Virus record (IMG/VR): IMGVR_UViG_3300021371_000007
Coordinates: 1 to 64,000 of that record
From: a virus
DNA: 64,000 bases
Direction: 5' to 3' (one strand)
Part shown: positions 12,813-31,449 of the stretch, piece by piece
How the letters are laid out: every line of letters starts with the position of its first letter
Numbering within the stretch: the first letter of the stretch is position 1
Made by a program: the position numbers and the translations under genes
Notes under the pieces: generated by a model
Told to the model about the DNA's origin: nothing
The model's database searches: none
What the model saw: the letters and a program-made list of their open reading frames with translations, nothing else

Positions 12813-14105
12813 ATGCCCAATTGCGGTCCTAATACACAGATTAACCTTCAGAGAAACACTGAAGTTTTTTGGTCAACTATTGACTTGAATGGCGGAGGCG
12901 TATCGGCTTCAATGACGCCTGACAACACTTGGAGAGTAGAAGTTTTAGCTGGTTATGCTTTTAACCAGAGTGCTACTAACCAAGATATTACTACTTTAGA
13001 ATCAGGTAATACACCTGACAGAGCTACACAAAGATTTAACACTTCAGTTAACCCAGTAGAATGGAGCATGAGTACTTATGTCCGTCCTACAGGGATGATA
13101 ACTACTGATGGTCAAGACTCGCCCACAGGTAATTCTAAACCAGTATCAGACTGGTTCTTATGGCAGTCTATGCTATCAAATAATGCTCCAGCGGCAGCAG
13201 GAGTAGAGACTAGTTCTTGGGAAAATAATGGTATTTTTCACTTAGGACATAGAGGCTTTGGCGATAATGCTGATGTAGTTGCAGCTTCCAATGCTAATGT
13301 TACTGCTCACAGCTCTAACTTCCCAACCATGAAAGAGTATTCACTTTACTTTAAAGTGGATAACGTAGTATATCAAGTTGGTCAAGCAGCGGTTAACGAA
13401 GGATCTATTGACGCAGCTATTGATTCAATTGCTACTACTTCTTGGAGTGGTTTTGGTACTAACTTGTTTGAACTAACAGGAGGCACCAGAGACGAGGCTA
13501 TTGCAGTATTTGGAGGCACATTAAACGACGGTTCTACAGCAGCAGCTAATAGTTCTACTGATGTAGGAAATTCAGCAACTCAATCTTACCATCCATTTGG
13601 TACTTCTAAAGTAGCTGGTTCTGATATATCATCAGCGTTTATTAAGAATAGATTAAGTTCTATTGCAGTAACATCGTCTGCTTCTGGAGCATCAAAAGCT
13701 TATACATTCCCAGTAACTGGGTTAAGCTGGGGATACAACAACAACGCTTCTTATTTAACACCAGAAGAATTAGCGTCACTTAACTCACCTATTGGTCAGT
13801 TTACAGGTGCTAAATCAGTAACAGGTAGCTTTACTGCGTATTTACGTGCAGGAGCAAACCAATCTGCTGAGTTCTTAAAAGATATTGTTACTAACACCGC
13901 GGTGCAAACTAAAGGTGCAAGTGCTAACCTACAAATCGGTGGTACAACAGCTCCTTACTTTGCGGTAAATATGCCGTCAGTACAATTTGACTTCCCATCA
14001 CACTCAATTGATGATGTTGTGGGTATTACAGTTGATTTCTTAGCACAAGAGACAGATCCTACTTGTGGTGACGAATTCACATTCTTTGTTAGCTCAACTA
14101 GCTAA
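12813..14105 (+). CDS. Tail tube (major tail) protein, T5 pb6-like
   Basis: L.RNT.VF.ST, DIT..ESG..P.R...RFN.S.N..EWS.STY..P, FIKNRLS; strong AAGGAG ribosome site. Confidence 0.88.
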   Translation: MPNCGPNTQINLQRNTEVFWSTIDLNGGGVSASMTPDNTWRVEVLAGYAFNQSATNQDITTLESGNTPDRATQRFNTSVNPVEWSMSTYVRPTGMITTDGQDSPTGNSKPVSDWFLWQSMLSNNAPAAAGVETSSWENNGIFHLGHRGFGDNADVVAASNANVTAHSSNFPTMKEYSLYFKVDNVVYQVGQAAVNEGSIDAAIDSIATTSWSGFGTNLFELTGGTRDEAIAVFGGTLNDGSTAAANSSTDVGNSATQSYHPFGTSKVAGSDISSAFIKNRLSSIAVTSSASGASKAYTFPVTGLSWGYNNNASYLTPEELASLNSPIGQFTGAKSVTGSFTAYLRAGANQSAEFLKDIVTNTAVQTKGASANLQIGGTTAPYFAVNMPSVQFDFPSHSIDDVVGITVDFLAQETDPTCGDEFTFFVSSTS

Positions 14106-14259: not shown

Positions 14260-14691
14260 ATGAGTATGATTAAAAATTTAATGATTAACGAAAAAGTTGT
14301 CGAAGTGGAATTTCCAGATAGCGATAATTTTTATGTTAGCTTAACTTATTTAAACAGAGAAAAATTAACAAAAATTAGAAATAGATCTTTAACTATCAAA
14401 TTTAACAAACGTTCTCGCCAAAGAGAAGAAGAAGTAGATAACGAAAAGTTTCTCGAAGAATATGCTAGAGAAGTTGTTAGAGGTTGGAGAGGTCTTACAA
14501 TCAGAGAATTAGCAAGGCTAATGCCTATTGAGACTGCTGGAGCTAACTTAGAGCAAGAAGTTCCGTATTCAGAAGAAGACGCGCTAGAGCTTTTACGAAA
14601 CTCTACTATCTTTGATCAGTTTGTCACAGACTGTCAGAATGATTTCGAAGTCTTTGAGAAAGATAAGACAGACTCACAAGTAAAAAACTAA
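14260..14691 (+). CDS. Tail assembly chaperone (gpG-like)
   Basis: Lies between tail tube and tape measure genes; ..V.GW.GL.. motif; ends in slippery A AAA AAC TAA. Confidence 0.8.
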   Translation: MSMIKNLMINEKVVEVEFPDSDNFYVSLTYLNREKLTKIRNRSLTIKFNKRSRQREEEVDNEKFLEEYAREVVRGWRGLTIRELARLMPIETAGANLEQEVPYSEEDALELLRNSTIFDQFVTDCQNDFEVFEKDKTDSQVKN

Positions 14692-15056
14692 GACGCTACA
14701 TATCAGAATCATTGCAGTCTGGGGGTATAACCAAAGAGCAATATTTTATGATGTGTGAGCAAATGGGTACTACTCCCATAGAGGAAGAAATACCTGTAGA
14801 TTATTCTGACCTAAGTGACGAGTGTCAAATAGTACTAGCTATATTTAATATACTACCAGATAGTATTGGAGGTATGAGTGGTGCTTGGTTGGGAAAAGAC
14901 TATTCTGGTCTTAGAACATTTATGGATATATACGGTATTCAAGATGAGATGTTGTTTTTAAACTTATTAACAGTATTAGTTCAGGAAACTTCTGAGCATT
15001 ACGCTAAAAAACAAAAAGAACAACAACAAAAATCTAAACTTAAAGGTAGAAAATGA
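14682..15056 (+). CDS. Tail assembly chaperone extension (gpT-like), read through a -1 frameshift
   Basis: The -1 frame is open from the slippery heptamer AAAAAAC (14682-14688) to TGA at 15056; no good independent start or SD. Confidence 0.75.
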   Translation, partial: KKLRRYISESLQSGGITKEQYFMMCEQMGTTPIEEEIPVDYSDLSDECQIVLAIFNILPDSIGGMSGAWLGKDYSGLRTFMDIYGIQDEMLFLNLLTVLVQETSEHYAKKQKEQQQKSKLKGRK

Positions 15057-18000
15057 TTGGCAGGCAATATTAATACTAACGTTAATCTTAACGTTAAATC
15101 AACAGGCACTAAACGAGCAACTAAAGATATAAATGCTTTAAACTCTGCTCTCCGTAAAATTGGTGCTGCCTCAGATAACTCTACTAAAGGGTCTGATAAG
15201 TTAAACAGATCTACTACTAGATTAGGACAGTCTTCTGCTTCTGCAGGCAGGCAGTTCTCAGCACAAGCCGCAGGACTTGGTGGGCTCGTAGGAGCTTACG
15301 CAGGTGCTGCGGCTACTGTTTTTGCACTACAGCAAGCTTTTTCAGCATTAAATAGAGCTGCCCAAGTAGATAATATTATTAGAGGTACACAAACTCTTGC
15401 TGCTAAAGTAGGCGAGAACGGTAATCAAATATTACAAAGCTTACAAGATATTACTCAGGGACAGGTAGCGCTAGGTGAAGCTGCAGAAAAAGCCAACCTT
15501 GCTTTATCTACAGGTTTTAGTACAAAGCAAATAGAACAGCTTGCTAATATATCTACTAAAGTTTCTGTTGCTTTAGGAAGAAACTTATCTGATGCTTTTG
15601 AAAGACTTACTAGAGGTGCTGCAAAACTTGAACCAGAACTTTTAGATGAACTTGGTATATTTACTAAGCTAGAACCAGCTACTAAAGCATATGCTAAAGA
15701 AATAGGAAAAGCAGTAAATGACTTAACAGAATTTGAGCGTAGACAAGCGTTTGTTAATGCTATTATCGAAGAAGGTAATAGAAAATTTAGTGAGATTGAT
15801 ACTAGTGCTCCCTCCGCACAAAAAAGCCTTAATAGGCTTAGTGCTACTTTACAAGATTTAGGACACAAATTCGGTGTTTTAGCCGCAGAAGCTTTAGTCC
15901 CTGTTATTGACTTTTTTACTAAAGACTTTACAGGGGCTATTTCTGTTTTTGCGCTAGTAGCTAGACAGTTAGCGTCTTCAGGTCTCACATCACTAACTGC
16001 GGGTATTAATTCATTTTCGGCATCTTTAGATTCAAATATAGCTAGATTAGGAGATCAAATATCTGCTTCTAAAAACTCCCAACAAGCTATGACAGACTTC
16101 TCAGAGTCAGTAAAAAATAATAATAACTTTATGGTATTAGGTAATAAAGCTCAAGCAGAACAAGCTTTAAAATTTAAAGGTATGGGCGCGGCATCTACTT
16201 TAGCCGCTACAGATTTAAAATCTTTTATTGCAGTACAACAAGAACAAATTAACCTTGGAGCCTCAAGACTAGTTCAATTAGAGAAAGAAAATAAATCTTT
16301 AATTGCTAGATCAAAGCTAGGACCCCTTACTAGTCCCGCAGATATTGCAGCTCTTAAATCATATAGCGCTGAAAGTGAAAAGTTACAAGCAAACCAATTT
16401 ATATTAACTAAAAGAATTAATGACGCTAACGTTGCTTTAGTGGCTCAATCAACTAAGTTAAAAGCTGTGGCTGTGGCCAGTAGGGTTGCAGCTGTATCTG
16501 TTAGGGCTTTGACAAATGCTTTTTCTGTGTTACTACGAGTTTTAAATGTAGCACTGTTAGCTTTAAGTTTTGGTCCTTTACTTTTAAATTTAGTAGGACA
16601 GATAGGTATATTTAATACTGCTATAAACTACTTAAAAGATACTTTTTTAGCCTTAAGAAATGCTAATAAAGATTTAGAGCTAGGCATAAGAGCTTTAGGG
16701 GCTAGATCTGAAGTAGGTATAAGCAAAATAACTGAACAGTACAAACAATTAGGCCTTTCTGCTAGAGAAGCTGCAGACGCACAAGAAAGTGCTATTAAAA
16801 GAGTAGCGGCTGCGCTAAAAGATAATGATTCTAAAATAGAAGAAGTATTTGGTAAATTTAGTGGTGCAGCAACCATAAGTGGGTTAATGGCTATAGCAGC
16901 AGGAGTTACTGCTATTTTTAGTGCTGCAGCCGCAGGCATAGCCGCTATTGTTGTAGGGGGTCTTAGTTTAATAGATATGTCTCTAGCATATCTTTTTGGT
17001 TATGAATCTATAAGTAAAAAACTTGCTAGTAGCGCAGCAGAGGCTTTAGGAGGCCCATCAAAGACCCTTAAAGAGGGAGAAGAAGCAGCAGCCTCTTTAA
17101 GAAAAGAAGTGGAAGAGCTACAAGACTCTTTTAATAGAACAGGAGACTTAGCCTTATTACAAGAAATAGATCAAATAAATGCGTTTAGAGATGCTATACT
17201 AGATACAGATTCAGCAGTTACTATGTTTACAGGAACTTTATCTAGACTTACAGGTCAAGACGCTTCTTTAATTGATGAACTATTAGGTACTACAGAAGCT
17301 GATTTTAGTGATACATCGTTAAAATTAGGAGGATTAGAGATAGCAACTAGAGAAGTAGGTAAAACTTTTACTGTTGCAAATGAGTCTATAGGATTAATTT
17401 TACCTACTTTTGTAGGATTTGAGTCTACCCTACTTAGAGCTAATAATGCTATGAGAGATGGCTCTGTAAGCAGTAAGTCTTTCGTAGAAATTATTAATAG
17501 TTTAAGAACTTCTCAATCTAACTTATCAGATACTATAGATATTGTTACTTCTAGAATATCTATACAAGAACAAAAGATTAAAAAGCTAAACGCAGAAGGA
17601 ACTGAAGAAGCTAGAGTGAGAGCAGATGAATTAGTAGACTCTAATAGAGATTTAATAACTACTTTAGGAGCTTTAGAAACTAGGTTTGAAGAAACTACTA
17701 ATAGATTAAATGAGTTATCTGAGGCAGGAGATCAAGCTAATAAATCTTTAGTTAAATTTGAAAATATACAAAAAGTATTTAAGTCAGCAGCAGATACTAT
17801 TACTAATGCAAAGTTCAAAGGGCTATTTGTTGAAACAGCAGAGGGCCTTGAGTTTGCAACTTCTTCTACGCAAAAATTTGTTAATCAGGTTAATAGCTTA
17901 AAAAATGAGCTTGTAGGCATAGGAGGTCTTACCGATTTAGAAGATAATGTTGCAGCTTTTGAAAAATTAGGTCAAGTAATTAGAAGTGATGATGGTAGTG

Positions 18001-21000
18001 TTACTACAACTACTGATAGAGCTGCAGAAGCAGTAAGAGAATTAAATCTTGCGGTAGCTAATAGAGAGTTTATGGAAAAATCTATTAAAGGTCTTTTATT
18101 AGGTCAAGTAGAGGCTGTAAAACAACAAACTAGAGAGCTTGAAAAGCAATCAAGAATAGCTAGACAACAACTTCAACAGGCAACTTTAAAAGCAGAAATA
18201 GACATATCTAAGGCGCGACTTACTTCTCTTAATAAAGCTAGAGCAGAAGAAATAAGTATTAGAAAAGTAAAAGCTGACGGTGCAGCAATATCTAGTGATC
18301 TAGCAGCAGCAGAGTTATCTATAGCTAGAGATATCTTATCTGAGAGAGAAAAGTCTATAGATATACAACAAGAACAGCTTAAAATAGTATCTCAAATAGC
18401 AGAAGAAAGAATAAAAGGAGCTAAAGAAGAGCTATCAGCACAAAAACAAATGATATCTTTAGCTAAAGAGGGTCTAGCCTTTGATGACTCCTTCTTTGAC
18501 AAAGATATTACTAAGATACTAAATTTACTTGCTGACATAGGATCAGCTTCTTTAGACGTAGAAATATCTCAAAAAGAGACAGATTTAGCAGAAAAGCAAG
18601 CAGAAACAGCAGCTCAATTAGCAAAGTTAGAAGCAAATAAGCAAACTTTTGCAGCAGAAATACTGGCAAAAGAACAAGAACTATCTTTACTAGAGATAGA
18701 CTCTAGAGTTGCAGATCTTAGTGCTCGTATAGAGATTTCAAGAGCAGAGAGACAAAATGAAATTGATTCCCTCACTGAGAGACGCAGCATAGCTGAGTTA
18801 GAAGCACAACTAAAAAGAGAGACTTATGCAGCTAATCTAGAAAATAAAAGAGAAGAGTTAAAAATACTAGACCAAAAAAGACAAGATACTATAAAACTAG
18901 TAGATTCTTTTAATAATCTAACTACTGATATGGGTACAGAGTTTGATACCTTTATATCGGAATTACAAGCAACTTTAAGTACTCAAAAAATAGCACTAGA
19001 AGCAAAAGAGACTATTGTAGTAGACCCTTCTGATGACAAAAGTGCTGATCCTGTACAATCTAGTGCAGAGGCATTAAATAAATCCGCAGATTCTCTAGAA
19101 ACTGTTGCTAAAGAAACATCTACTTTAGTAGAAGAAGTTACTAACACAGGACAATCTTCTTTAGACTCTTTACAGGCGTTAGAAACTTCTGCACAAGCTA
19201 CTAATGAGATAGCTAAAATAACTAATACTACGTTAGATACCACTATTTCTAACAAAAAAATAGAAAATGATTTAATAAGTAAAAACGAAGATGAAAGACT
19301 TGCTGCTTTAGGAGCTGAAAGTGCTGCACTAAAAGAGAAACACGCAATTGAGACTGAGAATAGTAATGCAGCACTAGAAACTGCAAACAAAACTGCTGAA
19401 TTAGAAGAAGAAAAAGCCAAAAACGCCGAAGCTGCTTTACAAGCTCAAATAAAAGCAAACCAATTAGCTCAGAGACAAGCTGCTTTTCAGATTATGAATC
19501 AAACAGGAACCTTACTGAGAGAGCTATCAGTAGGTAGGGCTGAAAAAGCAAGAGATAAAGCAGCAGAGAGTAGAGATAAGGTACTGGATAAACAGGAGGA
19601 AGTACTATCTAGAGTAAGCTCTTTGAGAAGTTCTGAGGCCGATGCTATGGCTGGAGCTGTTGATATTTTAAAAGAACGCAGAGCCTTAGAAAGAGATATA
19701 ATTTCTTCTATTGCAGACAGTGATGCTAGTGGTTACTTAAAAACTACAGAAGCTTATTTTCAAAACTTAAATGCCTTAGATGAGCAAACTAAAGTATTAA
19801 GTGAAGCTCAAGCTAATAGAGCTATAGCAGAAGCAGAGCTAGCTGTTCAAGACTATAAAGTTATAGAAGCGACTAATAACTTATCTAGTGCAGAAAAAGA
19901 TTTAGAAAACGCACACAACAGTTTAGTAGGTAAAACAGGAGATGTACTTCAAAAATTTGGAAGCTTAGGTAATAGTATGGTTAGCTTAGTAGGCTTAGCC
20001 CAACAACTAACGGGCGCCTTTACTACTCTAGGTAATACTTTAGTAGGCTCAGTAACTGGAGAGAGTAATAATCAAATTACTGAAGCAGTAAAAGATGGTT
20101 TTGATAAGTCAAAAGCTGCTGAAACTTCTGCTCAAGTTACAGGAAATGTAGTTACAGACTTAAAAAACGTTCTTGTAGGTAGTGTAAGAGAGTTAGGTGG
20201 TGCATTTGAAAGATTTAATCAAGAAAGTATTGGAGCTGCAGGAGGCGCTGCTCAATATTTTGCAGAATCTGACGGTAGTTTAACAGATTTTGCTGCTGCG
20301 GGCTTAGGTAAAGCAGTTACTCCTATGATAACTGGGTTTATAGAAGATTTTATTACCACAGCTTTAGGTCCTGTAGGTGGTATAGCTATGACTGCTATAG
20401 ATTTTATAGCAGGAGACTTTATATCTGGAGTTATTGGTGACGCGCTAGAAGGTATTAGTAACTTTTTTGCTCCTCGTAAGTGGAATAGATCAACTGTTGA
20501 TTTAACTACTGGTAATATAACAGATAGAAAAGATAGTGGAGTTGATCTGGATCCTGTAGCTAAATCAGCATTTAAAATGAATCAAGCATTAGAAACTGTT
20601 ACTGGAGGTCTTCAAAGATTTACTGAATCACAAGCAATACTAACCACTAAAGGTTCAGATATTAGAGAAAGATTCTTAGAGCTAAGGGGCGGTGGAGCTG
20701 AGGCAGTTAGATTAGACTTTAATAGCGAAAACTTTGGTAAGGACTTATTTGAAGGACTTATTAAAGGCTTAGATCCTAGATCTTTAACGGAAGACATGAA
20801 AACCGCTATAGGTAATATGGACTTCGGTAAAGAGATAGAAGATAACATGAAAGACCTTAATTTTGCTAAAGGCTTTGATGGTTTGATGACGCAATTAGAA
20901 TCTGCAGGAGGTAAATTTACTAATCTTGGTGAGTTTATAGAATTAGTAAATATTAAAGCAGAAGCTGCAGCTGCTTCATTTGCGCAAGGAGCCTTACAGC

Positions 21001-24000
21001 AAGCATTAGACTTAATAGAAGAATCTGGAAGAGTGTTCGGAGAACAATCTGAACAAGTACGAAGAGCAAAAGATGCAGCTCAGAATATGGTTTTAGCGCA
21101 TTTAGATTTACATGTAGCGGAAGATCGCACTGTAAGCCTACTTAGTGATACGTCTACTAATTTGAGTGGCATGGCTATGGCTATGGAGACTGTAAAAGCA
21201 GAAATGAATGCTATGCAAGAAGCTATTGAGGCTACAGGGGTTAATGCTGACGAAGCTTCTAGAATAATAGAAGAAGGCATAACACTTAAAATTAGACAAA
21301 TGGCTCAAGACTTTGGGGATGCGTTAAGTGACGTAATTCAGTTTGGTGATAGTCTAGAATCAAGCGCTGTTCAAGGATTAAAAGATGTTTTAGAATATCA
21401 ACAGGCTATAGTAAGAGATGCTGCCCATATTCAAGAACAGCTAGGTAATGGTTATGATTTTATAGCTCGTGCAGAAAAAGCTTTAGCTATTCAAAGAGGT
21501 AATATAGTAGCTAAAGCTTCAGATCAAGAATTAAAAGCTCTTAGTGATTTAGCAGGTGCAGGACAAGAATTTAGTAACGCTGCTATGAAAGCAGCTACTG
21601 ATGCTGAAATAACTAGAAGAGTTATGAATAATATATTTGAGGGGGCAAAACAGCTTACTCAAGCACAAAGAAGTTCAAGATCTGTAGGAAGAGGTCTGGC
21701 TTTTGCTGAGGGAGGTTTTGTACCAGGTACCCCTGAACAACAAAATAAAGACTCAGTGCCTGCATTACTAATGCCTGGAGAGTATGTATTAAATAAAGAA
21801 GCAGTTAAGAATGTTGGAGTAGGAACTTTAGCTGCTTTTAATTCTGGAGCTTTTAAAAAGATGGAAGCTGGGGGTAGTACTACTGGAGGAGTCATTACTC
21901 CTAATAAAATAGCTACTGATGCTTTTGGGGGTACTTTTGGTATAGACCCTGCTACTCAAGCACTATTCAAAAACTTTAGTCAAGATATGACTACTACTTT
22001 AGAGTTTTATGAAGCTAGAGAGCTAGTTGCTCAAGCTAATATAGAACTTTTTGAGACTTATTCAGACCTTAGAGAGGCTGCAGGGGCTAGCAATGATCTT
22101 ATGAATGCTTTTGGTCTTATAGTAGATCATATAGAGCGAGGGGAAATAGGTCTCGCTACTGCAGTATTTGATATAGCACATAATCTAACAGAAGCCACTA
22201 GCGCTACAGAAGCTTATACTCTTTCTCTATCTCAAAATCAAGCACAACAAGCTTTAGCTTCTGCCGGTGTTAATTTACAAAATGAAAATATAGACACTTT
22301 AACAGATAACTTAACTAGTTTCTACACTAGTATAAATACGTCTTCTGTAACTGCTGGAGATTTAGAAGCTGTAATAAGTCAAATGAATATAGCGCTATCT
22401 CAAGGAGTTATATTTGGTAGTGAGTATGGATCAATACTAGATGATGTTACTTCAGATTTTGATAATGCTTTAGCAGCCTTAGATGAATATTCTTCTTTCT
22501 TCTTAGAGCTTCAAGATATTACTTTAGACCCTACAGGAATTATAAGCTCTATAAGATCTGTTCAGTATGCATTTGAAGATGGTATGAATACTATGACAGA
22601 TGCGGTCACAGATGGATTTATAGATACAATAGAAGCTGCTACTGTACAAGTTAGACTTAATAAAAGACTAGAAAAAGAAAGAATAGATTTAATTAAAAAC
22701 TCTTCAGATGAGCAACTTAGAATAATTAGAGATACACAAGATTCAATTGCAGACGCAACTTTTAAAACAGGCGCTATAGCAGAAATAGCTGTTAGAAAAA
22801 TACTAGCAGTATCTTCTGCTTTTGGTACCTTTGAACAAGGATTAGTAGGTTTTTATAATAACTTAGTACAATCATCAGATAACTTTACTAGAACTTTAAG
22901 TGCTTCTGTAGTTAGTAGTATACAAGCAGCAGGTATAGTAATAGATGATGAGTTAGATACTAATTTCTTAGGTACACTAACTAATTTTGCTACACTATCT
23001 AAAAGTGGTTCTTCAAGTGTTCAAGCACTATCTACTGCGTTAGAACAATTAAATTATCAGTTAGAGATTGGAGAGACTATAGACACTGACACTTATAAAG
23101 AGGGAGTGGCCTTTTTACAGTCTTCCTTTATGGAGTTTTTAGATTTATTTAGTGGTATGTCTAATGCCTTTAGAGAAGCAGAATCAAACCTTGATAATTT
23201 TAAAACTACTTTACACTCTTCTTTCACCTCTATAACTGATGAACTAGAAGCTTTACTTAAAACTTTAGTAACTACTTATAGAACTACTTTAGCAGATGTT
23301 AAGACTATGTATCAAGAAGCAGTATCTCAACAAAAAGAAGCAGAAGAGTCATTATATGGAGTATTATTTAGTGCGCAAAATGCCTTTATAGATGCTGGAG
23401 GACATTTAGATGGTCACATATCTAGAATAGATGATATTGTAAAAGGTTTAGATCCTACATATCAGGGATATGCAGGATTAGATCAGTATTTAAAACAACT
23501 TCAAATAGATGTTCAAGCAGGTATCACTTCTTTAGGCGATATAAACACATCTCAATCTTTAGCAGCACTACAAACTAATCTTTCTAATAGTTTAGCAGAC
23601 TTAGCCATACTTCAAACACTTCCTGATTCTGCAGATAAATTTGTAAAAATAAGTAGAAAACTTTCAGAAATAGATGATATTAATAATCAAATATCTGCAG
23701 GAACTCAATCTACAGACGCACTAAAAGAAGCTACGTTAGACTTACTAAAAGTTGAAGAAGAGCTAAACTTTAATAATACTACTGCAGGACTACAACAAGT
23801 AGACTTAACCTTACAAGGTATAAGTCAAGATTTGCTTCAAAATGCTATAGATGCTAGAACTGCATTTAATACTTCTAATCAACTTTTAGATGATTTCACT
23901 ACAGCTTTAAACGCTAATTTTACTCCTAATTTAGTAGCTTCTACTACTGCTGTTAATAGCAGCACATTAAGTCTGTCTTCCTTTATAGCAGAGATGCAAT

Positions 24001-27000
24001 CTGCTAATCAAGTATTTTCAGACATAACTACTGCGGTTTCTGCTATAAATGCTACAGGAATTCAAGAAATAATAGATACCTTAGATGTAATATCTAACCC
24101 TACGGATGAAGTGAATGTAGATGTAGTAGATACTAGTTATAGAGGTATTTCAGATTTAAACGATATTTTAAGTAACTTTACTGGCATAGTCGCTGCCAAA
24201 ACTGCTTTTGAAAATCTATATGGATCAATAGCTGCAGTAACTCCTGTTTTACCTTTACAAGAATTTAATGACTTAAATGCTGAATTTATAAATTTAGAAA
24301 ATACAATAACTTCATTACTAGGTACTATGGGTAATAATAGTATTGCGGATATGGATGCAACTTTTGAGCAATTTGTATTAGACTCTATAGCTTTATTACA
24401 GAATCCTTTAACTTTATCAGGAGTTTCTACTTCAGGTTCTACAACTAATATAGCTGCTCAAGCTATTACAGGTTCAGGAGCTGTTAATAATCCTCAAATA
24501 AGTACTCAAACTTCTTTACTTCAACAAATTTTAACTCAAGGTTTAGGGGTTCAGAGTCCTGGCTACTTATTCTACACTAATCAAATATTAGAGCAAATAA
24601 GAACAGTATTAGAAGATATGTTAGTATTACAAGGAGGCACTCTACCTACTTATGCTAATATCACTTCTACCTTTACTGCTCCTACAGCAACTGGAAGTAC
24701 TACTACTGCTACTGTGCCTACAGGAACTACTACAGGATTACCTAGTTTAAATCAATCAGGAATACTAGGCCTTACGGGTCAGCTATTTGAAGTAGAAGAG
24801 CCTATAACTAGACCTGCTGATTATTTTTATATTGTAATACCTAAACTTGTTGCTATAGACGAATTTTATATAGTAGACCCTATTGAAGTAGATTATGAGT
24901 TTTTCTTTGATCTAACTCCTGTATCTGTTACTTCTATAGACACTGGTAATGGAGGGGATCATTTCTTTAATATAACTACAGTAGATACTGATTTTGATAA
25001 ATGGTTTAATGCTCCAACTTTAATAGACACTGAATATAGTAAATGGTTTAATGATCCCACTGTAATAGATACTAACTTTAATAAGTGGTTAAAAATTGTA
25101 GAAGAAGAAACAGGTATTTTTGATTGGGTCACAATAACTAAGTCTGCAGCTAATTATCAAACATTCTTTGAGGCACCTACTAAGGTAAATCACTCTGTAG
25201 CTACTTGGTATAACTTACCTACCAAGTTAGATAATACAGCTAATTTATGGTATAACTTACCTACCAAGAAAGATATAGACTATACAGATTGGTTTACGTT
25301 AAATAAAGTAGCTGTTAAATACTCGCAGTTTTTTGATCCCGAAGATAAAATAGCTTTAACAGATCATATAGATCCTGTTACAGTAGCTGCAGATTCTTTA
25401 TTTACTATAAACAAAAACTCAAAAGATGCTGATGATTTATACTCTATAAACTCTATAGAAAAAGACTATTCAACCTTCTTTAAAATAACAGCTAAAGATT
25501 TTGATTATACAGATTTCTTTAAAATAGTTGAAAAAGATATTACTGATTTTATACAAATATCAAAATCCACAAAGACGGCTATAGAGCTATTCACTATTCA
25601 AAAAAGTGAAGTAACAGGTAGCACTTTATTTTCTATAACAGCAGATTCAGTAGCAGCGTCTACACTTATAACTGTAAAGGCCAATAATAGAATACAAGTA
25701 GGAGCAGATGAGATATTTGATAAACCTACCTCAAAAATGGCTTTAAGCTTGTCAGATATATTTAGTAATTATGAAAGCGGTGCTTTTGATTGGACAAAAG
25801 CTGTAATAAGTGTAGGCCAAGTAATTAATGAGGACAAGCTTAAAGAAGGTCTGGCAAATAAGGCTATTCTTGCTACGGGTGATATTTTTGATAACTGGAA
25901 CGGTTCAGGCTTTGATATTGATAGTGTTGACATTAGCTACTTAGATTTATTTAACTTAGCAGTTACAGATATAGAATATACAACACTATTTAAACTGCCT
26001 AATGATGCAGGCAAAGAAAGTTTACACTGGAGTAGCTGGTTTAAAGTAGATCCTGCAGATAAAATGGATGCAAGAGATTTATTTACTTTTATATCTCCTG
26101 AACCCGTATCCGCCCTTGATTTATTTAATCCTACATCTCAATCGGTAGATGGGTCTGCTCTTTTTGTATTAAGTAATACTTTACAAAAAATAGATGCTAA
26201 TAATCTTTATGACATTGAAAAAGAAACTAAAGCGGCTACTGACTTCTTTACTATTACAGGAGTGCAACTTAAAGGCGCAGACTTTATTGATTTAAGTTAC
26301 TTAGCCGACTCTAAATATATAGCAGAAGCTAAGAATGTATTAGACGTTACCGGTAAGCTTACTGTTCAATCTTCTGATGTATTCAAAGTATCCGGTACTT
26401 TAGATAAAACAGCTAATCAAGTATATAATATAACCAAGAGTGATAAAGCAGGAGCTGCTTTCTGGGAAGTTACTGCTAGTGAGCAATCAGGGGCTTCTTT
26501 CTTTACGCCTACTAAAAGTGAATTAGCAGGTTTAAATTTCTTTAGTCCTACTCAAAGCACTATAACAGCTAACGATTTATTTAACTTTAATAAAGTAAAA
26601 ATAGATGTTAGCACTATGTTTGAATCTGAGTTATCTACTCTAACAGATGCAGTTAATGATCAAGATAGCTACTTAATTACTAACTATGGCAAATTAGAAA
26701 CTATAAAAAGTTATACTAAAGTATCTAGTGAGAAGCTTACAAATATCGCAAAAGCAGATTCAGATTTTCATGCTGCTATATTAGAAGATACTGCCTACTT
26801 AGAAACTATTGCTACCTCTTTAGGAGATTTAGCTGATATTAAAGCTAATACTGCCGATATTAAAACTAATACTTCTGTAAACGTATCTAAGCTTACTAAA
26901 ATAGAAAATAATACAGACGGTATAGAAGAGAAATTAGATCATATTTCTGATGATTTAGATGGTATTGCAAAAGACTTGGCAGATAAATTAGATCATATTT

Positions 27001-28319
27001 CTGATAATTTGGATACTTTAGAAAAAACTGCAAACGCTATTGAAGGGTATGTATTATATCTACCTGGCATGTCTACAGAGCTTACCGATCAAGGAAAAAC
27101 TTTGGTTACTATAGATAGTGTATTAGACGCTATAGAAATAGACACTTCAAATATGGTTACCTACCTAGAAAGCATAGCTACTAATAGTGCATATCTTAAA
27201 ACAATAGATCAAGATACAAGCCATTTAAAAACTAATGCAGATAATAAAATCTCTCATATTTCTGGTAATTTAGATGATATAATAAGTAATACAGATAAGA
27301 ACAGAACTCGCTATAAATACTCAGGCGCTACATCAGTTAACTTAGCAACTGGAGGTCCTGTAGTGGGGCCAGGAACTTCTACTAGCGACTCTATTCCTGC
27401 CAACTTGTCCAACGGTGAGTATGTAATAAAAGCTTCTTCTGCTAAAAGTATGGGTAGAGAGGTGTTAGACATGCTTAATTCTACAGGGTCTATATCCTCA
27501 CTAGGTAGAAAAGGAGATACAGAATTAGCGCATATTAACACTGTAGAAGCACAAATGCTTAAGTCAATAGGTGGTTCAGGCTCTAAAAATCCTCTTTCTG
27601 GTCTTAAAGAGTTTTTCTTTGATGACTTTAATCCTTTAACAGGTCTTAAAGACGCTGCACTCTCTGCTGCTAAATCAATTATAAGTAACACAAATAATCC
27701 AGAAGGTTATAGGCCAGAAAAAATAGGTAGTAATGCTAGTTGGAATACCGCAAACTTTGCTAATAATACTTTTGCTAAAAAAGTACTAGTAGAGCTTACA
27801 AGATATATAGCAGCTAATAGAGATGGAAAAGCCTTTACTCACTCTCAAGCCTTTAACTCTATTTCTGATGCATGGTTTGAGTATGATAAACCTAATATTA
27901 TACAATTTAATAGAGGTTCCTCGTTTAACAACGGTATCAGAGGTACAAGTAGTATAAGTAGCTTAATAACAAGACTTCAAAATGCTTATCCTTCTTTTGC
28001 TAACGGTGGTGAGATTTCAGGTGCTGGTACTAGTACTAGTGACTCTATAATGGCTATGTTGTCGGACGGTGAGTATATTATTAGAAATTCATCTGTTGAC
28101 AATGTGGGGGTAAATACTTTAGACTATATAAATAATACGGGACAACTACCTCAAGGCGACACTAATGTAGAAGTAAATATTACTAATAATGGGTCTCCAG
28201 TGGACGTAGAAGCTGAGCCTAAAGTTAGTATAATAGACGGTAAGGTAGTGGTAGATGTTATACTTAAAGATTTAAGAACTAATGGTCCTATTAAGAAGAC
28301 TATTAAGAAGATAAAGTAG
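15057..28319 (+). CDS. Giant tape measure protein (4420 aa)
   Basis: T5 pb2-like N-terminus (R.F.A.A..LGGL..AYA.AAA.VFAL..AF, ELLDELGI), hydrophobic segments, long coiled coils, GG.V.G.GT.TSDS..A.LS.GEY motifs; follows chaperones. Confidence 0.9.
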   Translation: MAGNINTNVNLNVKSTGTKRATKDINALNSALRKIGAASDNSTKGSDKLNRSTTRLGQSSASAGRQFSAQAAGLGGLVGAYAGAAATVFALQQAFSALNRAAQVDNIIRGTQTLAAKVGENGNQILQSLQDITQGQVALGEAAEKANLALSTGFSTKQIEQLANISTKVSVALGRNLSDAFERLTRGAAKLEPELLDELGIFTKLEPATKAYAKEIGKAVNDLTEFERRQAFVNAIIEEGNRKFSEIDTSAPSAQKSLNRLSATLQDLGHKFGVLAAEALVPVIDFFTKDFTGAISVFALVARQLASSGLTSLTAGINSFSASLDSNIARLGDQISASKNSQQAMTDFSESVKNNNNFMVLGNKAQAEQALKFKGMGAASTLAATDLKSFIAVQQEQINLGASRLVQLEKENKSLIARSKLGPLTSPADIAALKSYSAESEKLQANQFILTKRINDANVALVAQSTKLKAVAVASRVAAVSVRALTNAFSVLLRVLNVALLALSFGPLLLNLVGQIGIFNTAINYLKDTFLALRNANKDLELGIRALGARSEVGISKITEQYKQLGLSAREAADAQESAIKRVAAALKDNDSKIEEVFGKFSGAATISGLMAIAAGVTAIFSAAAAGIAAIVVGGLSLIDMSLAYLFGYESISKKLASSAAEALGGPSKTLKEGEEAAASLRKEVEELQDSFNRTGDLALLQEIDQINAFRDAILDTDSAVTMFTGTLSRLTGQDASLIDELLGTTEADFSDTSLKLGGLEIATREVGKTFTVANESIGLILPTFVGFESTLLRANNAMRDGSVSSKSFVEIINSLRTSQSNLSDTIDIVTSRISIQEQKIKKLNAEGTEEARVRADELVDSNRDLITTLGALETRFEETTNRLNELSEAGDQANKSLVKFENIQKVFKSAADTITNAKFKGLFVETAEGLEFATSSTQKFVNQVNSLKNELVGIGGLTDLEDNVAAFEKLGQVIRSDDGSVTTTTDRAAEAVRELNLAVANREFMEKSIKGLLLGQVEAVKQQTRELEKQSRIARQQLQQATLKAEIDISKARLTSLNKARAEEISIRKVKADGAAISSDLAAAELSIARDILSEREKSIDIQQEQLKIVSQIAEERIKGAKEELSAQKQMISLAKEGLAFDDSFFDKDITKILNLLADIGSASLDVEISQKETDLAEKQAETAAQLAKLEANKQTFAAEILAKEQELSLLEIDSRVADLSARIEISRAERQNEIDSLTERRSIAELEAQLKRETYAANLENKREELKILDQKRQDTIKLVDSFNNLTTDMGTEFDTFISELQATLSTQKIALEAKETIVVDPSDDKSADPVQSSAEALNKSADSLETVAKETSTLVEEVTNTGQSSLDSLQALETSAQATNEIAKITNTTLDTTISNKKIENDLISKNEDERLAALGAESAALKEKHAIETENSNAALETANKTAELEEEKAKNAEAALQAQIKANQLAQRQAAFQIMNQTGTLLRELSVGRAEKARDKAAESRDKVLDKQEEVLSRVSSLRSSEADAMAGAVDILKERRALERDIISSIADSDASGYLKTTEAYFQNLNALDEQTKVLSEAQANRAIAEAELAVQDYKVIEATNNLSSAEKDLENAHNSLVGKTGDVLQKFGSLGNSMVSLVGLAQQLTGAFTTLGNTLVGSVTGESNNQITEAVKDGFDKSKAAETSAQVTGNVVTDLKNVLVGSVRELGGAFERFNQESIGAAGGAAQYFAESDGSLTDFAAAGLGKAVTPMITGFIEDFITTALGPVGGIAMTAIDFIAGDFISGVIGDALEGISNFFAPRKWNRSTVDLTTGNITDRKDSGVDLDPVAKSAFKMNQALETVTGGLQRFTESQAILTTKGSDIRERFLELRGGGAEAVRLDFNSENFGKDLFEGLIKGLDPRSLTEDMKTAIGNMDFGKEIEDNMKDLNFAKGFDGLMTQLESAGGKFTNLGEFIELVNIKAEAAAASFAQGALQQALDLIEESGRVFGEQSEQVRRAKDAAQNMVLAHLDLHVAEDRTVSLLSDTSTNLSGMAMAMETVKAEMNAMQEAIEATGVNADEASRIIEEGITLKIRQMAQDFGDALSDVIQFGDSLESSAVQGLKDVLEYQQAIVRDAAHIQEQLGNGYDFIARAEKALAIQRGNIVAKASDQELKALSDLAGAGQEFSNAAMKAATDAEITRRVMNNIFEGAKQLTQAQRSSRSVGRGLAFAEGGFVPGTPEQQNKDSVPALLMPGEYVLNKEAVKNVGVGTLAAFNSGAFKKMEAGGSTTGGVITPNKIATDAFGGTFGIDPATQALFKNFSQDMTTTLEFYEARELVAQANIELFETYSDLREAAGASNDLMNAFGLIVDHIERGEIGLATAVFDIAHNLTEATSATEAYTLSLSQNQAQQALASAGVNLQNENIDTLTDNLTSFYTSINTSSVTAGDLEAVISQMNIALSQGVIFGSEYGSILDDVTSDFDNALAALDEYSSFFLELQDITLDPTGIISSIRSVQYAFEDGMNTMTDAVTDGFIDTIEAATVQVRLNKRLEKERIDLIKNSSDEQLRIIRDTQDSIADATFKTGAIAEIAVRKILAVSSAFGTFEQGLVGFYNNLVQSSDNFTRTLSASVVSSIQAAGIVIDDELDTNFLGTLTNFATLSKSGSSSVQALSTALEQLNYQLEIGETIDTDTYKEGVAFLQSSFMEFLDLFSGMSNAFREAESNLDNFKTTLHSSFTSITDELEALLKTLVTTYRTTLADVKTMYQEAVSQQKEAEESLYGVLFSAQNAFIDAGGHLDGHISRIDDIVKGLDPTYQGYAGLDQYLKQLQIDVQAGITSLGDINTSQSLAALQTNLSNSLADLAILQTLPDSADKFVKISRKLSEIDDINNQISAGTQSTDALKEATLDLLKVEEELNFNNTTAGLQQVDLTLQGISQDLLQNAIDARTAFNTSNQLLDDFTTALNANFTPNLVASTTAVNSSTLSLSSFIAEMQSANQVFSDITTAVSAINATGIQEIIDTLDVISNPTDEVNVDVVDTSYRGISDLNDILSNFTGIVAAKTAFENLYGSIAAVTPVLPLQEFNDLNAEFINLENTITSLLGTMGNNSIADMDATFEQFVLDSIALLQNPLTLSGVSTSGSTTNIAAQAITGSGAVNNPQISTQTSLLQQILTQGLGVQSPGYLFYTNQILEQIRTVLEDMLVLQGGTLPTYANITSTFTAPTATGSTTTATVPTGTTTGLPSLNQSGILGLTGQLFEVEEPITRPADYFYIVIPKLVAIDEFYIVDPIEVDYEFFFDLTPVSVTSIDTGNGGDHFFNITTVDTDFDKWFNAPTLIDTEYSKWFNDPTVIDTNFNKWLKIVEEETGIFDWVTITKSAANYQTFFEAPTKVNHSVATWYNLPTKLDNTANLWYNLPTKKDIDYTDWFTLNKVAVKYSQFFDPEDKIALTDHIDPVTVAADSLFTINKNSKDADDLYSINSIEKDYSTFFKITAKDFDYTDFFKIVEKDITDFIQISKSTKTAIELFTIQKSEVTGSTLFSITADSVAASTLITVKANNRIQVGADEIFDKPTSKMALSLSDIFSNYESGAFDWTKAVISVGQVINEDKLKEGLANKAILATGDIFDNWNGSGFDIDSVDISYLDLFNLAVTDIEYTTLFKLPNDAGKESLHWSSWFKVDPADKMDARDLFTFISPEPVSALDLFNPTSQSVDGSALFVLSNTLQKIDANNLYDIEKETKAATDFFTITGVQLKGADFIDLSYLADSKYIAEAKNVLDVTGKLTVQSSDVFKVSGTLDKTANQVYNITKSDKAGAAFWEVTASEQSGASFFTPTKSELAGLNFFSPTQSTITANDLFNFNKVKIDVSTMFESELSTLTDAVNDQDSYLITNYGKLETIKSYTKVSSEKLTNIAKADSDFHAAILEDTAYLETIATSLGDLADIKANTADIKTNTSVNVSKLTKIENNTDGIEEKLDHISDDLDGIAKDLADKLDHISDNLDTLEKTANAIEGYVLYLPGMSTELTDQGKTLVTIDSVLDAIEIDTSNMVTYLESIATNSAYLKTIDQDTSHLKTNADNKISHISGNLDDIISNTDKNRTRYKYSGATSVNLATGGPVVGPGTSTSDSIPANLSNGEYVIKASSAKSMGREVLDMLNSTGSISSLGRKGDTELAHINTVEAQMLKSIGGSGSKNPLSGLKEFFFDDFNPLTGLKDAALSAAKSIISNTNNPEGYRPEKIGSNASWNTANFANNTFAKKVLVELTRYIAANRDGKAFTHSQAFNSISDAWFEYDKPNIIQFNRGSSFNNGIRGTSSISSLITRLQNAYPSFANGGEISGAGTSTSDSIMAMLSDGEYIIRNSSVDNVGVNTLDYINNTGQLPQGDTNVEVNITNNGSPVDVEAEPKVSIIDGKVVVDVILKDLRTNGPIKKTIKKIK

Positions 28320-28325: not shown

Positions 28326-28706
28326 ATGGCAACATACACATATCCAGATGATGCGTCAATGGACGATAGAAAACCAGATAGGGGCTATAGCATTGCTAGA
28401 GCCCCTAATAATACATCTTTTAGCTCTGTTTTAGGCTATGAAAAAAGAAAAAGATTATCTAGAAAGGTACTAAGAAAATTTACTTTTAGCTATACAAATA
28501 TAAGTGAGGCTAGAAAAACTAGTATTGAAAATTTTTACTTAGACAGAGGTGGAAACTTTGAGACTTTTAAATTAGACTTAGCTCATTTTGGACTATCAGG
28601 AACCGCTAATGTTAAGTTTTCTGAATCTTTAGATATAAACCATGTAATCTCTGGTGATAATACTGATATATTTAACATATCTCTAATACTAACTGAGGTG
28701 GCTTAA
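28326..28706 (+). CDS. Distal tail protein (lambda gpM-like)
   Basis: 126 aa after tape measure gene; PDRG, GYE.R, I.NF...RGG..E.F. Confidence 0.7.
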   Translation: MATYTYPDDASMDDRKPDRGYSIARAPNNTSFSSVLGYEKRKRLSRKVLRKFTFSYTNISEARKTSIENFYLDRGGNFETFKLDLAHFGLSGTANVKFSESLDINHVISGDNTDIFNISLILTEVA

Positions 28707-30496
28707 TGTCTTCTCGTTCGTATGATTTTATACTTACACTGGCTGATACAAGTAGCTTTTCTGTAGGAAATTCTGTGCTAGGAGTTTCTTCTAATGCTTT
28801 TGGTCAAGTAATATCTAAAGATAGCAGTAATCTAAAAGTAAAAGTAGCTAATTCTAAACACTACTTTATTTCTTCAGAAAATATAATTTCTAATGTGACA
28901 GTCAATACGTCTGCTACATATCAACAATCTTTTACTTCTACTCCTATAGTAATAGACAGTAATTCTTATTCTATAAACGGTACAAGTAATACTTTTGCGC
29001 TACCTCATGTCCCCTTACATAAAGCAGAAATTGAAATATATGCTGATAATGTATTTATAGAATCTGAAAAATATGTATGGCCTAGTACAGTTTTAGATGA
29101 TGTAGGTGTAGATTTTAAAGACATAGAGATAATAACTTTTCCCGCAGCAAATGATAGAGCTATAGTATCTAGTGCTAATTTTCCTACTACGGGTACTAAT
29201 AATTTAACCTTAAAAGTATCTACAGGAGATAAAGATTCTTTATCTTTTTTAGGCTCTAACACGCCTACTACTCAAATACAAACAGGAGCTAGTACCATAA
29301 CTACTATACATCCTTCTAATTTTGTGCTAAATAGAAATGCTTTTGAAGAAGAACCTATTGTAAGATTATACTCTATTTATTATCCAGGAGAGTGGTATCC
29401 TGCTAATGATAAGGGTAATCCAACAGCAGAGGGTACAGGAAGACCTTGGCCTTACGGTTTTCCTATTAGATACGCAGAAATAATAGGAGAAGACTTTTCT
29501 ATTGATGACTATACAATAACTCATCAAAGTAATAATTATGTATCTTTTCCTATTAACTATCCTGGAATATCTATTAGTTCTGATGGGTCTATAGGAGAGA
29601 TAGACTTAGAAATAAGTAGTATTGATTTATCTCTACCTACCTTAGTAGAAGATCCGTTTTTAGTAGGCTATAATAATACTTCTGCAATATCTAGCACAGT
29701 TAATGGTGAAGTACTAACTAATATTGATCCAAGGACTGTACTTTCTAATCCTTCTTATGACGCAAATATAGTAGATTCTAGAGGAGAAAACCAGCCTTAT
29801 GATCATTCTACTACTATTTCTCTAGGAGAAGAATGGGTATCTTTGATGCCTGATAGTAGAGACTTACTAGGAGCAGTAGTAGAGGTAAGAAGCTACTATG
29901 CATCTTCACTAGAGTATTGGCCTGAGTTTTCTATTATAAGTAGTGTATCTGGAAACTCTATAGGCTTAGAATCTACAGCTCCTTATAGAGTAGGAGACAC
30001 AGTTAATAGTAATGTAAGTACTAGCACTGCTACTATCACTGCTGTATATAGTAATAACTATATAAAATTAGATCAGTCTATTTCTGGTGCTGTGATAGGA
30101 GATAAGCTTTTAATAAATAATAGTAATTATGATCCTGATGCTTATGTAGAAAGAAAATTTACAATTAATAAACTTAACTCATATAATGATTCTTCTATTA
30201 GTTTCAACTTAGGAAGCAGAACAACTAATTTGCTAAAAGAAGTCCCAAGAAGAAAATTTTATAAAAACACTTGTCCTTGGAAATATAAAGGAGTAGAGTG
30301 TAAGTATCCTAGTGGTGGCACAGGAGTAATTAGCAATAGTATACTACCTAAAACTGCTAATGGTATGTTTACTATAAACAATGTAGCTACTTCTGATCCC
30401 AACTTAGATAAATGTTCTAAAAGTATATCTGCTTGTAGATTAAGAAATAATCTGTTAAATTGGGGAGGGTTTCCTGGTGTTAGAAACAAAATTTAA
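28706..30496 (+). CDS. Tail tip protein L-like, enlarged
   Basis: C-terminal PRR.F..N.CPW.YKG.EC ... D.CSK....C.LR....WGGFPG, the four-Cys Fe-S motif of lambda gpL. Confidence 0.8.
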   Translation: MSSRSYDFILTLADTSSFSVGNSVLGVSSNAFGQVISKDSSNLKVKVANSKHYFISSENIISNVTVNTSATYQQSFTSTPIVIDSNSYSINGTSNTFALPHVPLHKAEIEIYADNVFIESEKYVWPSTVLDDVGVDFKDIEIITFPAANDRAIVSSANFPTTGTNNLTLKVSTGDKDSLSFLGSNTPTTQIQTGASTITTIHPSNFVLNRNAFEEEPIVRLYSIYYPGEWYPANDKGNPTAEGTGRPWPYGFPIRYAEIIGEDFSIDDYTITHQSNNYVSFPINYPGISISSDGSIGEIDLEISSIDLSLPTLVEDPFLVGYNNTSAISSTVNGEVLTNIDPRTVLSNPSYDANIVDSRGENQPYDHSTTISLGEEWVSLMPDSRDLLGAVVEVRSYYASSLEYWPEFSIISSVSGNSIGLESTAPYRVGDTVNSNVSTSTATITAVYSNNYIKLDQSISGAVIGDKLLINNSNYDPDAYVERKFTINKLNSYNDSSISFNLGSRTTNLLKEVPRRKFYKNTCPWKYKGVECKYPSGGTGVISNSILPKTANGMFTINNVATSDPNLDKCSKSISACRLRNNLLNWGGFPGVRNKI

Positions 30497-30854
30497 ATTA
30501 CTGTTAGACGCTATAGGAAAATATTCTCAGTCTCAATATCCTTTAGAGGCTTGTGGGATAATTACTTTAGATTTTGAGTTTATACCTAGCAATAACTTAA
30601 GTAATAATCCTAGACATAGTTTTATAATCGATCCTATTATTGTTAATAAGTATGATGGAAATATATGGGGTATTTTTCACTCTCACACAGATGAAAAGTT
30701 CGAGACCCCCTCCGAGTTAGATATGTCTTTAACAGTATATCCAGACATAAAATTTATATTATTCAATAATAAAAATTATTACATATATTGGTACGACACA
30801 GATAAAAATATTAAAAGGTACGAAAAGTTTAATGAAGATCACTGTAAATATTAA
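30477..30854 (+). CDS. Tail tip assembly protein K-like JAB/MPN metalloprotease, without NlpC/P60 domain
   Basis: P.EACG ... IFHSH ...... PS..D. Confidence 0.85.
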   Translation: MLETKFKLLLDAIGKYSQSQYPLEACGIITLDFEFIPSNNLSNNPRHSFIIDPIIVNKYDGNIWGIFHSHTDEKFETPSELDMSLTVYPDIKFILFNNKNYYIYWYDTDKNIKRYEKFNEDHCKY

Positions 30855-31449
30855 TAAGCCTCTTAGATCTTTCTTTGATGATAGATCTTCTATAATACTA
30901 GATGCATCAGACTATTTTGATATATACTCTGGTCTTAAGAATATGTTTCCTAAATTTAATAAGTTACTAAATTCTATAAAAAATACAGAGTCTAAATTTC
31001 AAGACGTAGTATTTATAGAAGATAATAAAATTATAGACGTATCTAAATTTAAACTAATAATTAAAGAAAACTTAGCAGTATCGTTAACTCCCGTATTTTT
31101 TGGCGCAGCTCCCTCTTATACTTTTTCTAATCTATATAGCGATATCAAATCTAGTTTTATGTATCCTTTATTCGGTTTATCTACTGCTAGTACAGAGTCT
31201 TCTGACTTTGAAGGATTAGATAAAAGAATACTAGACTCATCCTTATTTGGAAGAGCAGAAGAAGTATATGCAGCAGGTATGAGAACAGAAAATGATGTAT
31301 TTGGAGAATTACAAATTAATACTAATGCAAAACTACCTATAGGACTTCACTATGGTCTTGTAAGAGTATCAGGTACTTTAATAAATAACTACACTAAAAC
31401 ATATAGATGTGATCCTGATGTGTTTAGAGTAAAGGATGTAATACCTTAA
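30832..31449 (+). CDS. Tail assembly protein I-like (ubiquitin-like N-terminal domain)
   Basis: Beta-grasp-type N-terminus ending LTPVFFGA; C-terminal PI.L.YG..RV.G; lies between K and J. Confidence 0.7.
   Translation: MKITVNINKPLRSFFDDRSSIILDASDYFDIYSGLKNMFPKFNKLLNSIKNTESKFQDVVFIEDNKIIDVSKFKLIIKENLAVSLTPVFFGAAPSYTFSNLYSDIKSSFMYPLFGLSTASTESSDFEGLDKRILDSSLFGRAEEVYAAGMRTENDVFGELQINTNAKLPIGLHYGLVRVSGTLINNYTKTYRCDPDVFRVKDVIP

Follow-up and report, generated by a model that had tools for sequence, protein, structure and literature searches.

The subject of this analysis is a giant tape measure protein (TMP) encoded in the first 64 kb (the window) of an 81,946-bp IMG/VR virus record, IMGVR_UViG_3300021371_000007, called linear and 73% complete. 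Its gene occupies 15057..28319 on the plus strand and specifies 4,420 amino acids (aa). We propose that the protein is probably a true ruler for a tail of 0.55-0.7 micrometre, with the whole or nearly the whole chain measuring; tail length, the topology of the chain within the tail and its ejection are what we infer. The gene itself is confirmed as real and intact, mis-assembly being excluded as far as sequence data allow.

The open reading frame (ORF) begins with TTG and has no internal stop in the ORF list or the translation, so that the uninterrupted 13.3-kb, 4,420-aa frame noticed in the initial annotation stands at its exact coordinates. A purine stretch, AAAGGTAG, lies 7-14 nt 5' of the TTG, the stop of the upstream ORF is at 15054-15056, and close relatives (P0002-P0005, N-terminus MAGNIN...) have ATG at the same start codon. 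Since 4,420 codons without a stop in DNA of 32-38% G+C would be impossible by chance, the ORF is not a chance one. The encoded protein, of 475.7 kDa, contains no cysteine, although the frequency in the other structural genes would predict 13 (P ~2e-6); none of 35 complete relatives has one either.

The product can be regarded as a siphophage TMP because its gene lies where a TMP gene is expected, between two tail assembly chaperones (14260-15056) and the tip genes (from 28326), and because it matches TMP families at both ends: phrog_3779 (E 5.3e-43), phrog_3547 (E 6.1e-24) and phrog_5448 (E 1.8e-13). Four TMP sequences were also matched in the Protein Data Bank (PDB). Gene position and homology thus support the identity originally given. 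The pb2-like N-terminus claimed with it proved correct in shifted form: residues 21-288 align with residues 125-400 of pb2 of phage T5 (PDB 7zhj_f, E 4e-23), a protein whose PDB chain of 1,219 aa agrees with the quoted length of about 1200 aa, while sequence comparison revealed no resemblance to pb2 past residue ~310. The N-terminal part also shows 32% identity to the TMP of the T5-like phage Gostya9, with which the gene order agrees. Since the tube protein and the N-terminal end of the TMP are T5-like and the tip genes resemble M, L, K, I and J of lambda, the phage, uncultured and marine, is evidently a distant T5 relative with a lambda-type tip. Megablast analysis of 12000-32000 against phages gave no match, and a search for a host clue among contigs binned into metagenome-assembled genomes yielded only two short ones, from which no host was deduced.

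One argument for the ruler is conservation of length. Sixteen relatives came out of a word-indexed search. Three of them share 94-96% identity with the window TMP (4,434-4,435 aa), two share 48-49% (4,553 and 4,585 aa), three 31-34% (4,466-4,988 aa), and eight have mainly the ends in common with it (2,552-4,882 aa). In the comparison of lengths suggested in the initial annotation, relatives at 31-57% identity are colinear throughout and keep lengths of 4,466-4,988 aa, and residues 300-1800 show 14-30% identity to distant relatives with 0-11% gaps. A ruler is favoured because length is kept while sequence drifts.

A profile scan of IMG/VR gave 77 loci, 35 of them with a complete TMP of at least 1,000 aa, some being near-copies; three short closed frames (L016, L036 and L078, with 410, 388 and 92 aa), for which frameshifts or the tracing of the frame are a possible cause, were left out of the length census. 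The complete proteins measure 1,237 aa (one, from a T5-like phage), 1,450-1,700 aa (21), 3,588-4,682 aa (nine) or 4,585-4,985 aa (four). A module of ~50 aa with the consensus 'GG...DS(I/V)PA.L..GE(Y/F)V', present three times in the window TMP, follows these four classes without exception: a profile of 25 copies finds 0, 1, 2 and 3 of them in 1, 21, 9 and 4 relatives, respectively. In a tree of the N-domain (46 rows) the length classes cluster by clade, and nine short TMPs form the sister clade of a group of twelve giants (92/89 support). The well-supported branches force at least three changes each for the 3,200-4,020-aa and 4,400-5,000-aa classes, and are compatible with a single origin of the 1,400-1,750-aa class.

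Published calibrations of 0.146-0.16 nm per residue accord with the ~0.15 nm first quoted and, multiplied by 4,420 aa, give 645-707 nm. At 0.15 nm the value is 663 nm, so the original estimate of up to about 600 nm was slightly low, and the long tail behind it remains the best-supported reading because length is conserved in diverged relatives and phage P23-45 keeps ~0.16 nm per residue. Among the calibrating phages, the 1,699 aa of mycobacteriophage Douge gp16 correspond to a tube of 269.6 nm (0.159 nm/aa; PMC13033339). In TP901-1, 118 nm correspond to ~810 measuring residues, deletion of aromatic repeats shortens the tail, and hydrophobic and repeat regions both contribute to its length (PMC5099701). 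The 5,002-aa TMP of P23-45 is full-size in virions despite its RNA polymerase (PMC10770324), and its tail is given as 800 nm in a preprint abstract.

No rival role emerged for the protein. Across the whole TMP, Pfam at E up to 0.1 gave no family except a sub-threshold DUF7322, and the ESM Atlas returned only unnamed clusters and weak TMP-like leads for residues 2271-3229. Those residues were found in 9 of 1.84 billion representative proteins, and the eight strong matches among them all lie in giant TMPs at the same relative place; the second half never occurred as a separate protein in that set. Neither HExxH nor HxH was found in the TMP, and a single DxDxD lies inside the repeats and is not conserved, so that no embedded enzyme domain appears to be detectable. 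An RNA polymerase cargo as in P23-45 was rejected for want of a conserved DxDxD, and a fusion of two separate genes because no protein consisting of the second half alone turned up.

We envisage that the T5-like tube would polymerise around the chaperone-coated TMP, whose C-terminal ~110 residues (the third module and the terminal 50 aa) would sit in the tip. Tube growth would end at the N-terminal end of the TMP, the whole chain or nearly all of it setting ~0.55-0.7 micrometres. The giant size may have arisen by addition of segments, each closed by a ~50-aa module. At infection the chain would leave the tail before the DNA, with its hydrophobic stretches possibly aiding passage through the envelope.

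A long frame on a metagenome contig that is called linear and 73% complete could be an assembly chimera, or a naturally broken gene mistakenly read through. A pattern scan found four further IMG/VR contigs with ~95% aa identity, all of them open to the contig ends. They cover TMP residues 1-2604 (L003), 1-2301 (L004), 1-457 (L005) and 1760-4411 (L002), and so overlap independently over residues 1760-2604. Synonymous and non-synonymous codon differences from the window number 429/138 (L002), 378/134 (L003), 212/115 (L004) and 50/2 (L005), and every indel consists of whole codons, including +7 aa in L002 at residue 4071. The ratio of synonymous to non-synonymous differences is lowest (~1.0-1.7) in residues 1001-2000 and constraint is strongest in 1-500 and 2501-3000; the gene is under purifying selection. 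Of 25 members listed for two 90%-identity clusters, 11 have the full length of 4,428-4,443 aa.

Among the 24 public runs listed, 20, from 15 studies, contain the DNA at least in part, with half or more of the sampled words in 14 of them, although two of the runs could represent the source sample itself. In four other seawater runs the Logan contigs cover 30/30 bins, and a listed contig spans the mid-chain module in three of the four; in run X4 the listed pieces end at 21794 and restart at 21903. In favour of a chimera are two joints in Logan contigs of two or three runs, which skip 22288->23666 (1,377 nt, whole codons) and 24547->24807 (259 nt). Their sides are only 21-23 letters long, however, and joints with sides below 30 letters usually reflect repeats or other organisms. 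As independent contigs, 11 full-length copies elsewhere, the seawater runs and relatives at 31-57% identity all carry the gene open or colinear from end to end, the mis-assembly that the initial annotation wished to see checked is exceedingly improbable. The joints themselves could be repeats or rare deletion variants. Two oddities were noted in the same material: runs X7, X12 and X14, labelled 'urban metagenome' and all belonging to one study, contain 53-74% of the words sampled from this gene of a marine phage, and the 90% cluster of P0005 (4,553-aa TMP) includes three JGI proteins of 49 aa that bear the name 'cytochrome c oxidase subunit 1', apparently an oddity of naming or clustering.

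Along the chain the following parts were distinguished, internal repeats having been found by tiled self-BLAST:

15057..15986, plus strand: conserved N-terminal domain, residues 1-310 (phrog_3779, PDB 7zhj_f), 67-72% identity to three distant relatives
16509..16976, plus strand: two hydrophobic, membrane-span-like stretches, residues 485-516 and ~600-640 (Kyte-Doolittle windows >1.6)
16974..19916, plus strand: stretch poor in Pro and Gly and rich in Ala, Glu, Lys and Gln by composition, residues ~640-1620
19914..20456, plus strand: Gly-rich hydrophobic stretch, residues ~1620-1800 (14-20% Pro+Gly; low-confidence model helices)
20466..20876, plus strand: small alpha/beta domain, residues ~1804-1940 (AlphaFold2, predicted local distance difference test (pLDDT) 70-83)
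21669..21845, plus strand: module copy 1, residues 2205-2263, at 0.505 of the chain (internal repeat, regex; lambda gpH 750-791, BLAST E 6e-5)
21864..24746, plus strand: second-half segment of very constant length, residues 2270-3230, 29-53% identity to distant relatives
24762..26666, plus strand: aromatic repeat zone, residues 3236-3870, ~45 units of 13-14 aa (autocorrelation peaks at 13, 14 and 27; self-matches)
26664..27311, plus strand: helical stretch, residues 3870-4085, with 'DHLSDNL'-type heptad repeats (four long model helices)
27309..27626, plus strand: module copy 2, residues 4085-4146, then a conserved 'GD..AHIN..E...LK..GG.G..N..GL..FFFD' (repeat, regex, phrog_3547)
27993..28316, plus strand: module copy 3, residues 4313-4370, and conserved last 50 aa, lambda-gpHC-like (PDB 8zdo_S, E 3.6e-16)

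The third module and the last 50 aa are common to all 34 non-T5 complete relatives. The alpha/beta domain is the only confidently folded part found in the AlphaFold2 models, which comprised residues 1590-2290 and 3230-4420; Foldseek of the 1590-2290 model against the PDB gave nothing at E <=0.001 (best E 0.03). Helices dominate the models of residues 1590-2290 (pLDDT 45) and 3852-4064 (pLDDT 32), while the aromatic zone, many of whose units contain proline and which includes a 42-nt tandem repeat at 24982-25090, has no regular secondary structure over residues 3236-3850 in a very-low-confidence model (pLDDT 32). The poorly conserved residues ~640-1620 (14-30% identity to distant relatives, few gaps) contain a hot spot at ~1290-1430, in relatives the site of lysozyme domains or of long inserts, such as a tail-lysozyme domain in P0007 (PF18013) and a GH24 phage lysozyme in P0048 (PF00959, residues 1382-1506). 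The hot-spot stretch of P0049 resembles a lytic transglycosylase by eye, and Pfam gives no call for it.

Distances between conserved anchors in ten giants were as follows:

start to N-domain end: 222-225 aa
mid-chain module to PDSADKF: 625-639 aa, in 10/10 proteins
PDSADKF to PADYFYI: 364-412 aa
PADYFYI to module 2, across the repeat zones: 801-1,201 aa
module 3 to the end: 92 aa in 9/9, the anchor not being found in P0009

The repeat zones, namely the 13-14-aa aromatic units and the heptads, whose copy number varies between relatives, are the parts that drift in length. In the other giant clade, ~20-aa tandem units 'N.V.FVT.RDS.V.QIN.VN' (P0011, P0013 and P0016) or ~30-aa units 'TGFTAPTLTT.TAGTVG' (P0012 and P0014) precede module 2, and the repeat zone there seems to have arisen separately in each giant lineage.

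Several of these features weigh against a chain that measures throughout. The tail is known from its genes, no relative is cultured, and in the phage collection only the first ~300 aa and the modules find matches. Some 620 residues (3236-3870) are not predicted to be helical, and 0.15 nm/aa may fail there. The second half is better conserved than the first (29-53% versus 14-30%) and one stretch in it is nearly fixed in length at 625-639 aa, which would be more in keeping with a separate function than with a free spacer. The module, which short relatives invariably have at the tip end, stands here in the exact middle of the chain as well, where it could mark a cut or a fold-back. In lambda, moreover, there are six TMP copies and only three C-terminal pieces (PMC12617516), so that the rules of packing can hardly be taken as fixed. 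With its better-conserved second half, its stretch of fixed length, its non-helical repeats and a module in mid-chain, the protein might be processed or have an added function.

One way to accommodate such points is an ordinary tail of 150-350 nm, measured by no more than a portion of the chain (perhaps its first ~2,200 residues, or fewer), with the remainder kept in the lumen as stored protein in folded, doubled-back or bundled form. Regex and profile place the mid-chain module at 0.48-0.53 in every member of the clade, the models predict one small folded domain and a non-helical repeat zone, and relatives with the same N- and C-terminal ends need only 1,450-1,700 aa. Against this, the modelled stretch of the first half consists mostly of long helices, hydrophobic and repeat regions of TP901-1 both add to the length of its tail, P23-45 keeps its ~0.16 nm/aa despite an 800-aa enzyme, and length has been kept through deep drift of the sequence. 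We therefore regard an ordinary tail as unlikely, and a ruler of full or nearly full length as the better account.

The initial annotation also offered a processed polyprotein with ejected cargo in its C-terminal half. The cargo found little support, as there is no enzyme or cargo domain and that half is never separate; processing is possible, given the module in mid-chain. A ruler and processing are not alternatives, because lambda and T5 cut their TMPs after tail assembly. The chain could measure first and then be cut at or beside its three modules, as gpH is cut to gpH* and gpHC, into pieces of ~2,200, 1,900, 220 and 100 residues which would leave successively, possibly with different jobs in the envelope. 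That the number of modules follows the length class suggests that they bound segments. They stand at 0.93-0.94 of the chain in one-copy TMPs, at 0.87-0.90 and 0.97-0.98 in two-copy TMPs, and at 0.48-0.51, 0.92-0.93 and 0.98 in three-copy TMPs.

The module profile also matches lambda gpH at 752-774 (by eye the copy extends over 733-776, just after a Gly-rich region), and the last ~110 aa of the window TMP, with a module and a short end resembling a tip-binding one, have the arrangement of the gpH C-terminal piece; by BLAST, module copy 3 against gpH is not significant (E 0.57). According to the Ur-lambda paper, gpH is cut at about residues 690-710, as judged by mass, releasing a C-terminal piece of ~14 kDa by a protease and at a site which it calls unknown, and gpH residues 818-849 are resolved bound to gpI (PMC12617516). 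In T5, pb2 is cut after R1127 (PMC10038345). A JAB peptidase gene lies in the tip cluster of 28/35 loci, and in all module-bearing loci with enough downstream DNA, since six of the misses have too little of it and the seventh is the T5-like locus without a module.

The same observations have their other side. Cleavage data among module-bearing TMPs exist only for lambda, lacking the exact site, and P23-45 gp96 is of full size in virions. The module matches TMPs of many actinobacteriophages and others. It matches two internal stretches of the Douge TMP, described as a trimer of 1,699 residues with no cuts mentioned in the portions of that account available to us (PMC13033339). The co-occurrence of module and JAB gene amounts to one contrast and is confounded by shared descent. 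Cutting at the modules seems rather unlikely to us, next to a plain ruler. A search of the tape measure literature for the module under its 'PGEFV' motif found no paper, and a complex prediction of TMP residues 4300-4420 with the I-like protein scored 0.00, uninformative either way.

Iyer et al. (2006) predicted that a terminal glycine of the ubiquitin-like I protein is the point at which the JAB domain of the K protein trims it. By extending this from the I protein to the TMP, one may speculate that the module is a processing joint, that the K-like JAB protein (30477-30854) cuts after its invariant Gly-Gly and corresponds to the maturation protease of lambda gpH, and that giants are polyproteins of three to four released proteins, their number set by the module count. 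We consider this quite improbable.

Like pb2 of T5 (Tequintavirus; PDB 7zhj, 7zqp, 8hqo), the window TMP has hydrophobic stretches and belongs to a T5-like tube, but it is 3.6 times longer, pb2 has no copy of the module, and the tip genes of the window are of lambda type rather than of pb9/pb3 type. A muralytic metallopeptidase piece of the pb2C type is not apparent, the motifs HExxH and HxH being absent and the similarity confined to the N-domain. Lambda gpH shares one module followed by a short tip-binding end, as well as tip genes of L, K (JAB), I and J type; it differs in having 853 aa and one module against 4,420 aa and three, the similarity is weak and the N-terminal domains are unrelated. 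Also a giant TMP is gp96 of P23-45 (likewise P74-26), which sets an extremely long tail and is full-sized in the virion. An N-terminal RNA polymerase and a metallopeptidase domain are part of gp96, whereas the window TMP has no detectable enzyme domain; the two showed no relation in sequence, and host and habitat differ. TP901-1 and other TMPs with aromatic-marked repeats resemble the window TMP in their short Trp/Phe-marked tandem repeats before the C-terminal end, which in TP901-1 add to the length of the tail and are regarded as facilitating duplication and deletion (PMC5099701). The repeats here, ~45 units, many containing proline and with no helix predicted, recur every 13-14 aa instead of every 11 or 18. 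Douge gp16 (PDB 8zdo) has two internal modules, at 938-1011 and 1409-1459 of its 1,699 aa, but is otherwise unrelated, and only residues 1658-1699 are resolved, the modules lying outside them (PMC13033339).

The relatives' contigs of 96-116 kb suggest a genome of about 100-115 kb for the phage that bears this TMP. Gene order in the window is terminase, portal, a protease-capsid fusion, tail terminator, T5-like tube, two chaperones, TMP and M-, L-, K(JAB)-, I- and J-like genes. The tail genes around the TMP are:

12813..14105, plus strand: major tail (tube) protein, T5-like (phrog_3575, E 3.2e-52)
14260..14691, plus strand: tail assembly chaperone, 143 aa (phrog_313, E 3.8e-11)
14712..15056, plus strand: second tail assembly chaperone, 114 aa, its stop abutting the TMP start (phrog_3914, E 4.1e-18)
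15057..28319, plus strand: giant TMP, 4,420 aa (ORF, translation, TMP family matches)
28326..33938, plus strand: lambda-type tip genes, M-, L-, K-, I- and J-like (PF05100 E 9.4e-21, PF14464 E 4.1e-6, PF13550 E 6.9e-11, phrog_31 E 9.5e-66)
within 28326..33938, plus strand: M-like tip protein, 126 aa, and L-like protein, 596 aa
30477-30854, plus strand: K-like JAB peptidase of the tip cluster
30832-31449, plus strand: I-like protein of the tip cluster
31449-33938, plus strand: J-like protein of the tip cluster

The tube protein shows 29-30% identity to 908 records of T5-like phages. In the tip cluster, the L-like protein (28706-30496, plus strand) matches Phage_tail_L over residues 472-592 only, leaving ~470 N-terminal residues unexplained. 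The I-like family has a conserved 'L.P.I.GG' at about residues 85-91, as expected of a ubiquitin-like domain with a terminal glycine; the window's copy reads FFGAA at this position. Just upstream of the large terminase, the ORF at 468-3518 (plus strand, 1,016 aa, no cysteine) contains 14 FG-GAP repeats (PF14312, E 7e-197) and has no PHROG match; Gostya9 has a receptor-binding protein at a similar place. The 904-aa ORF at 6757-9471 (plus strand) joins a head maturation protease (residues 8-201, phrog_80) to a part like a major head protein (residues 734-821, phrog_283). The 421-aa ORF at 9554-10819 (plus strand) has a domain at residues ~80-312 that also occurs in giant 'virion structural' and in baseplate-wedge families and is joined in one chain to a part like a head-tail adaptor (residues 311-420, phrog_442). 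The genes switch strand and the GC skew changes sign near 40 kb (about 39700-40050), and a single tRNA-Thr (TGT) lies on the minus strand at 43955-44030.

Giant TMPs have already been published for P23-45 and P74-26, and the present one is a variant of this known kind; new are its giant size in a T5-like marine lineage, the array of 13-14-aa aromatic units and the exact increase in module number from one length class to the next. Should the ruler rule apply, phages of a group common in the surface ocean would carry tails of ~0.65 micrometre, and tails longer than this are, in the published work available to us, described among studied phages only for Thermus phages. A testable lead on how gpH matures is offered by the agreement of module number with length class, taken with lambda's single copy next to the region that is cut. 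A single family that extends from 1,237 to 4,985 aa with the same two ends constitutes a natural series for learning how tape measures measure, which of their parts count and what the modules do.

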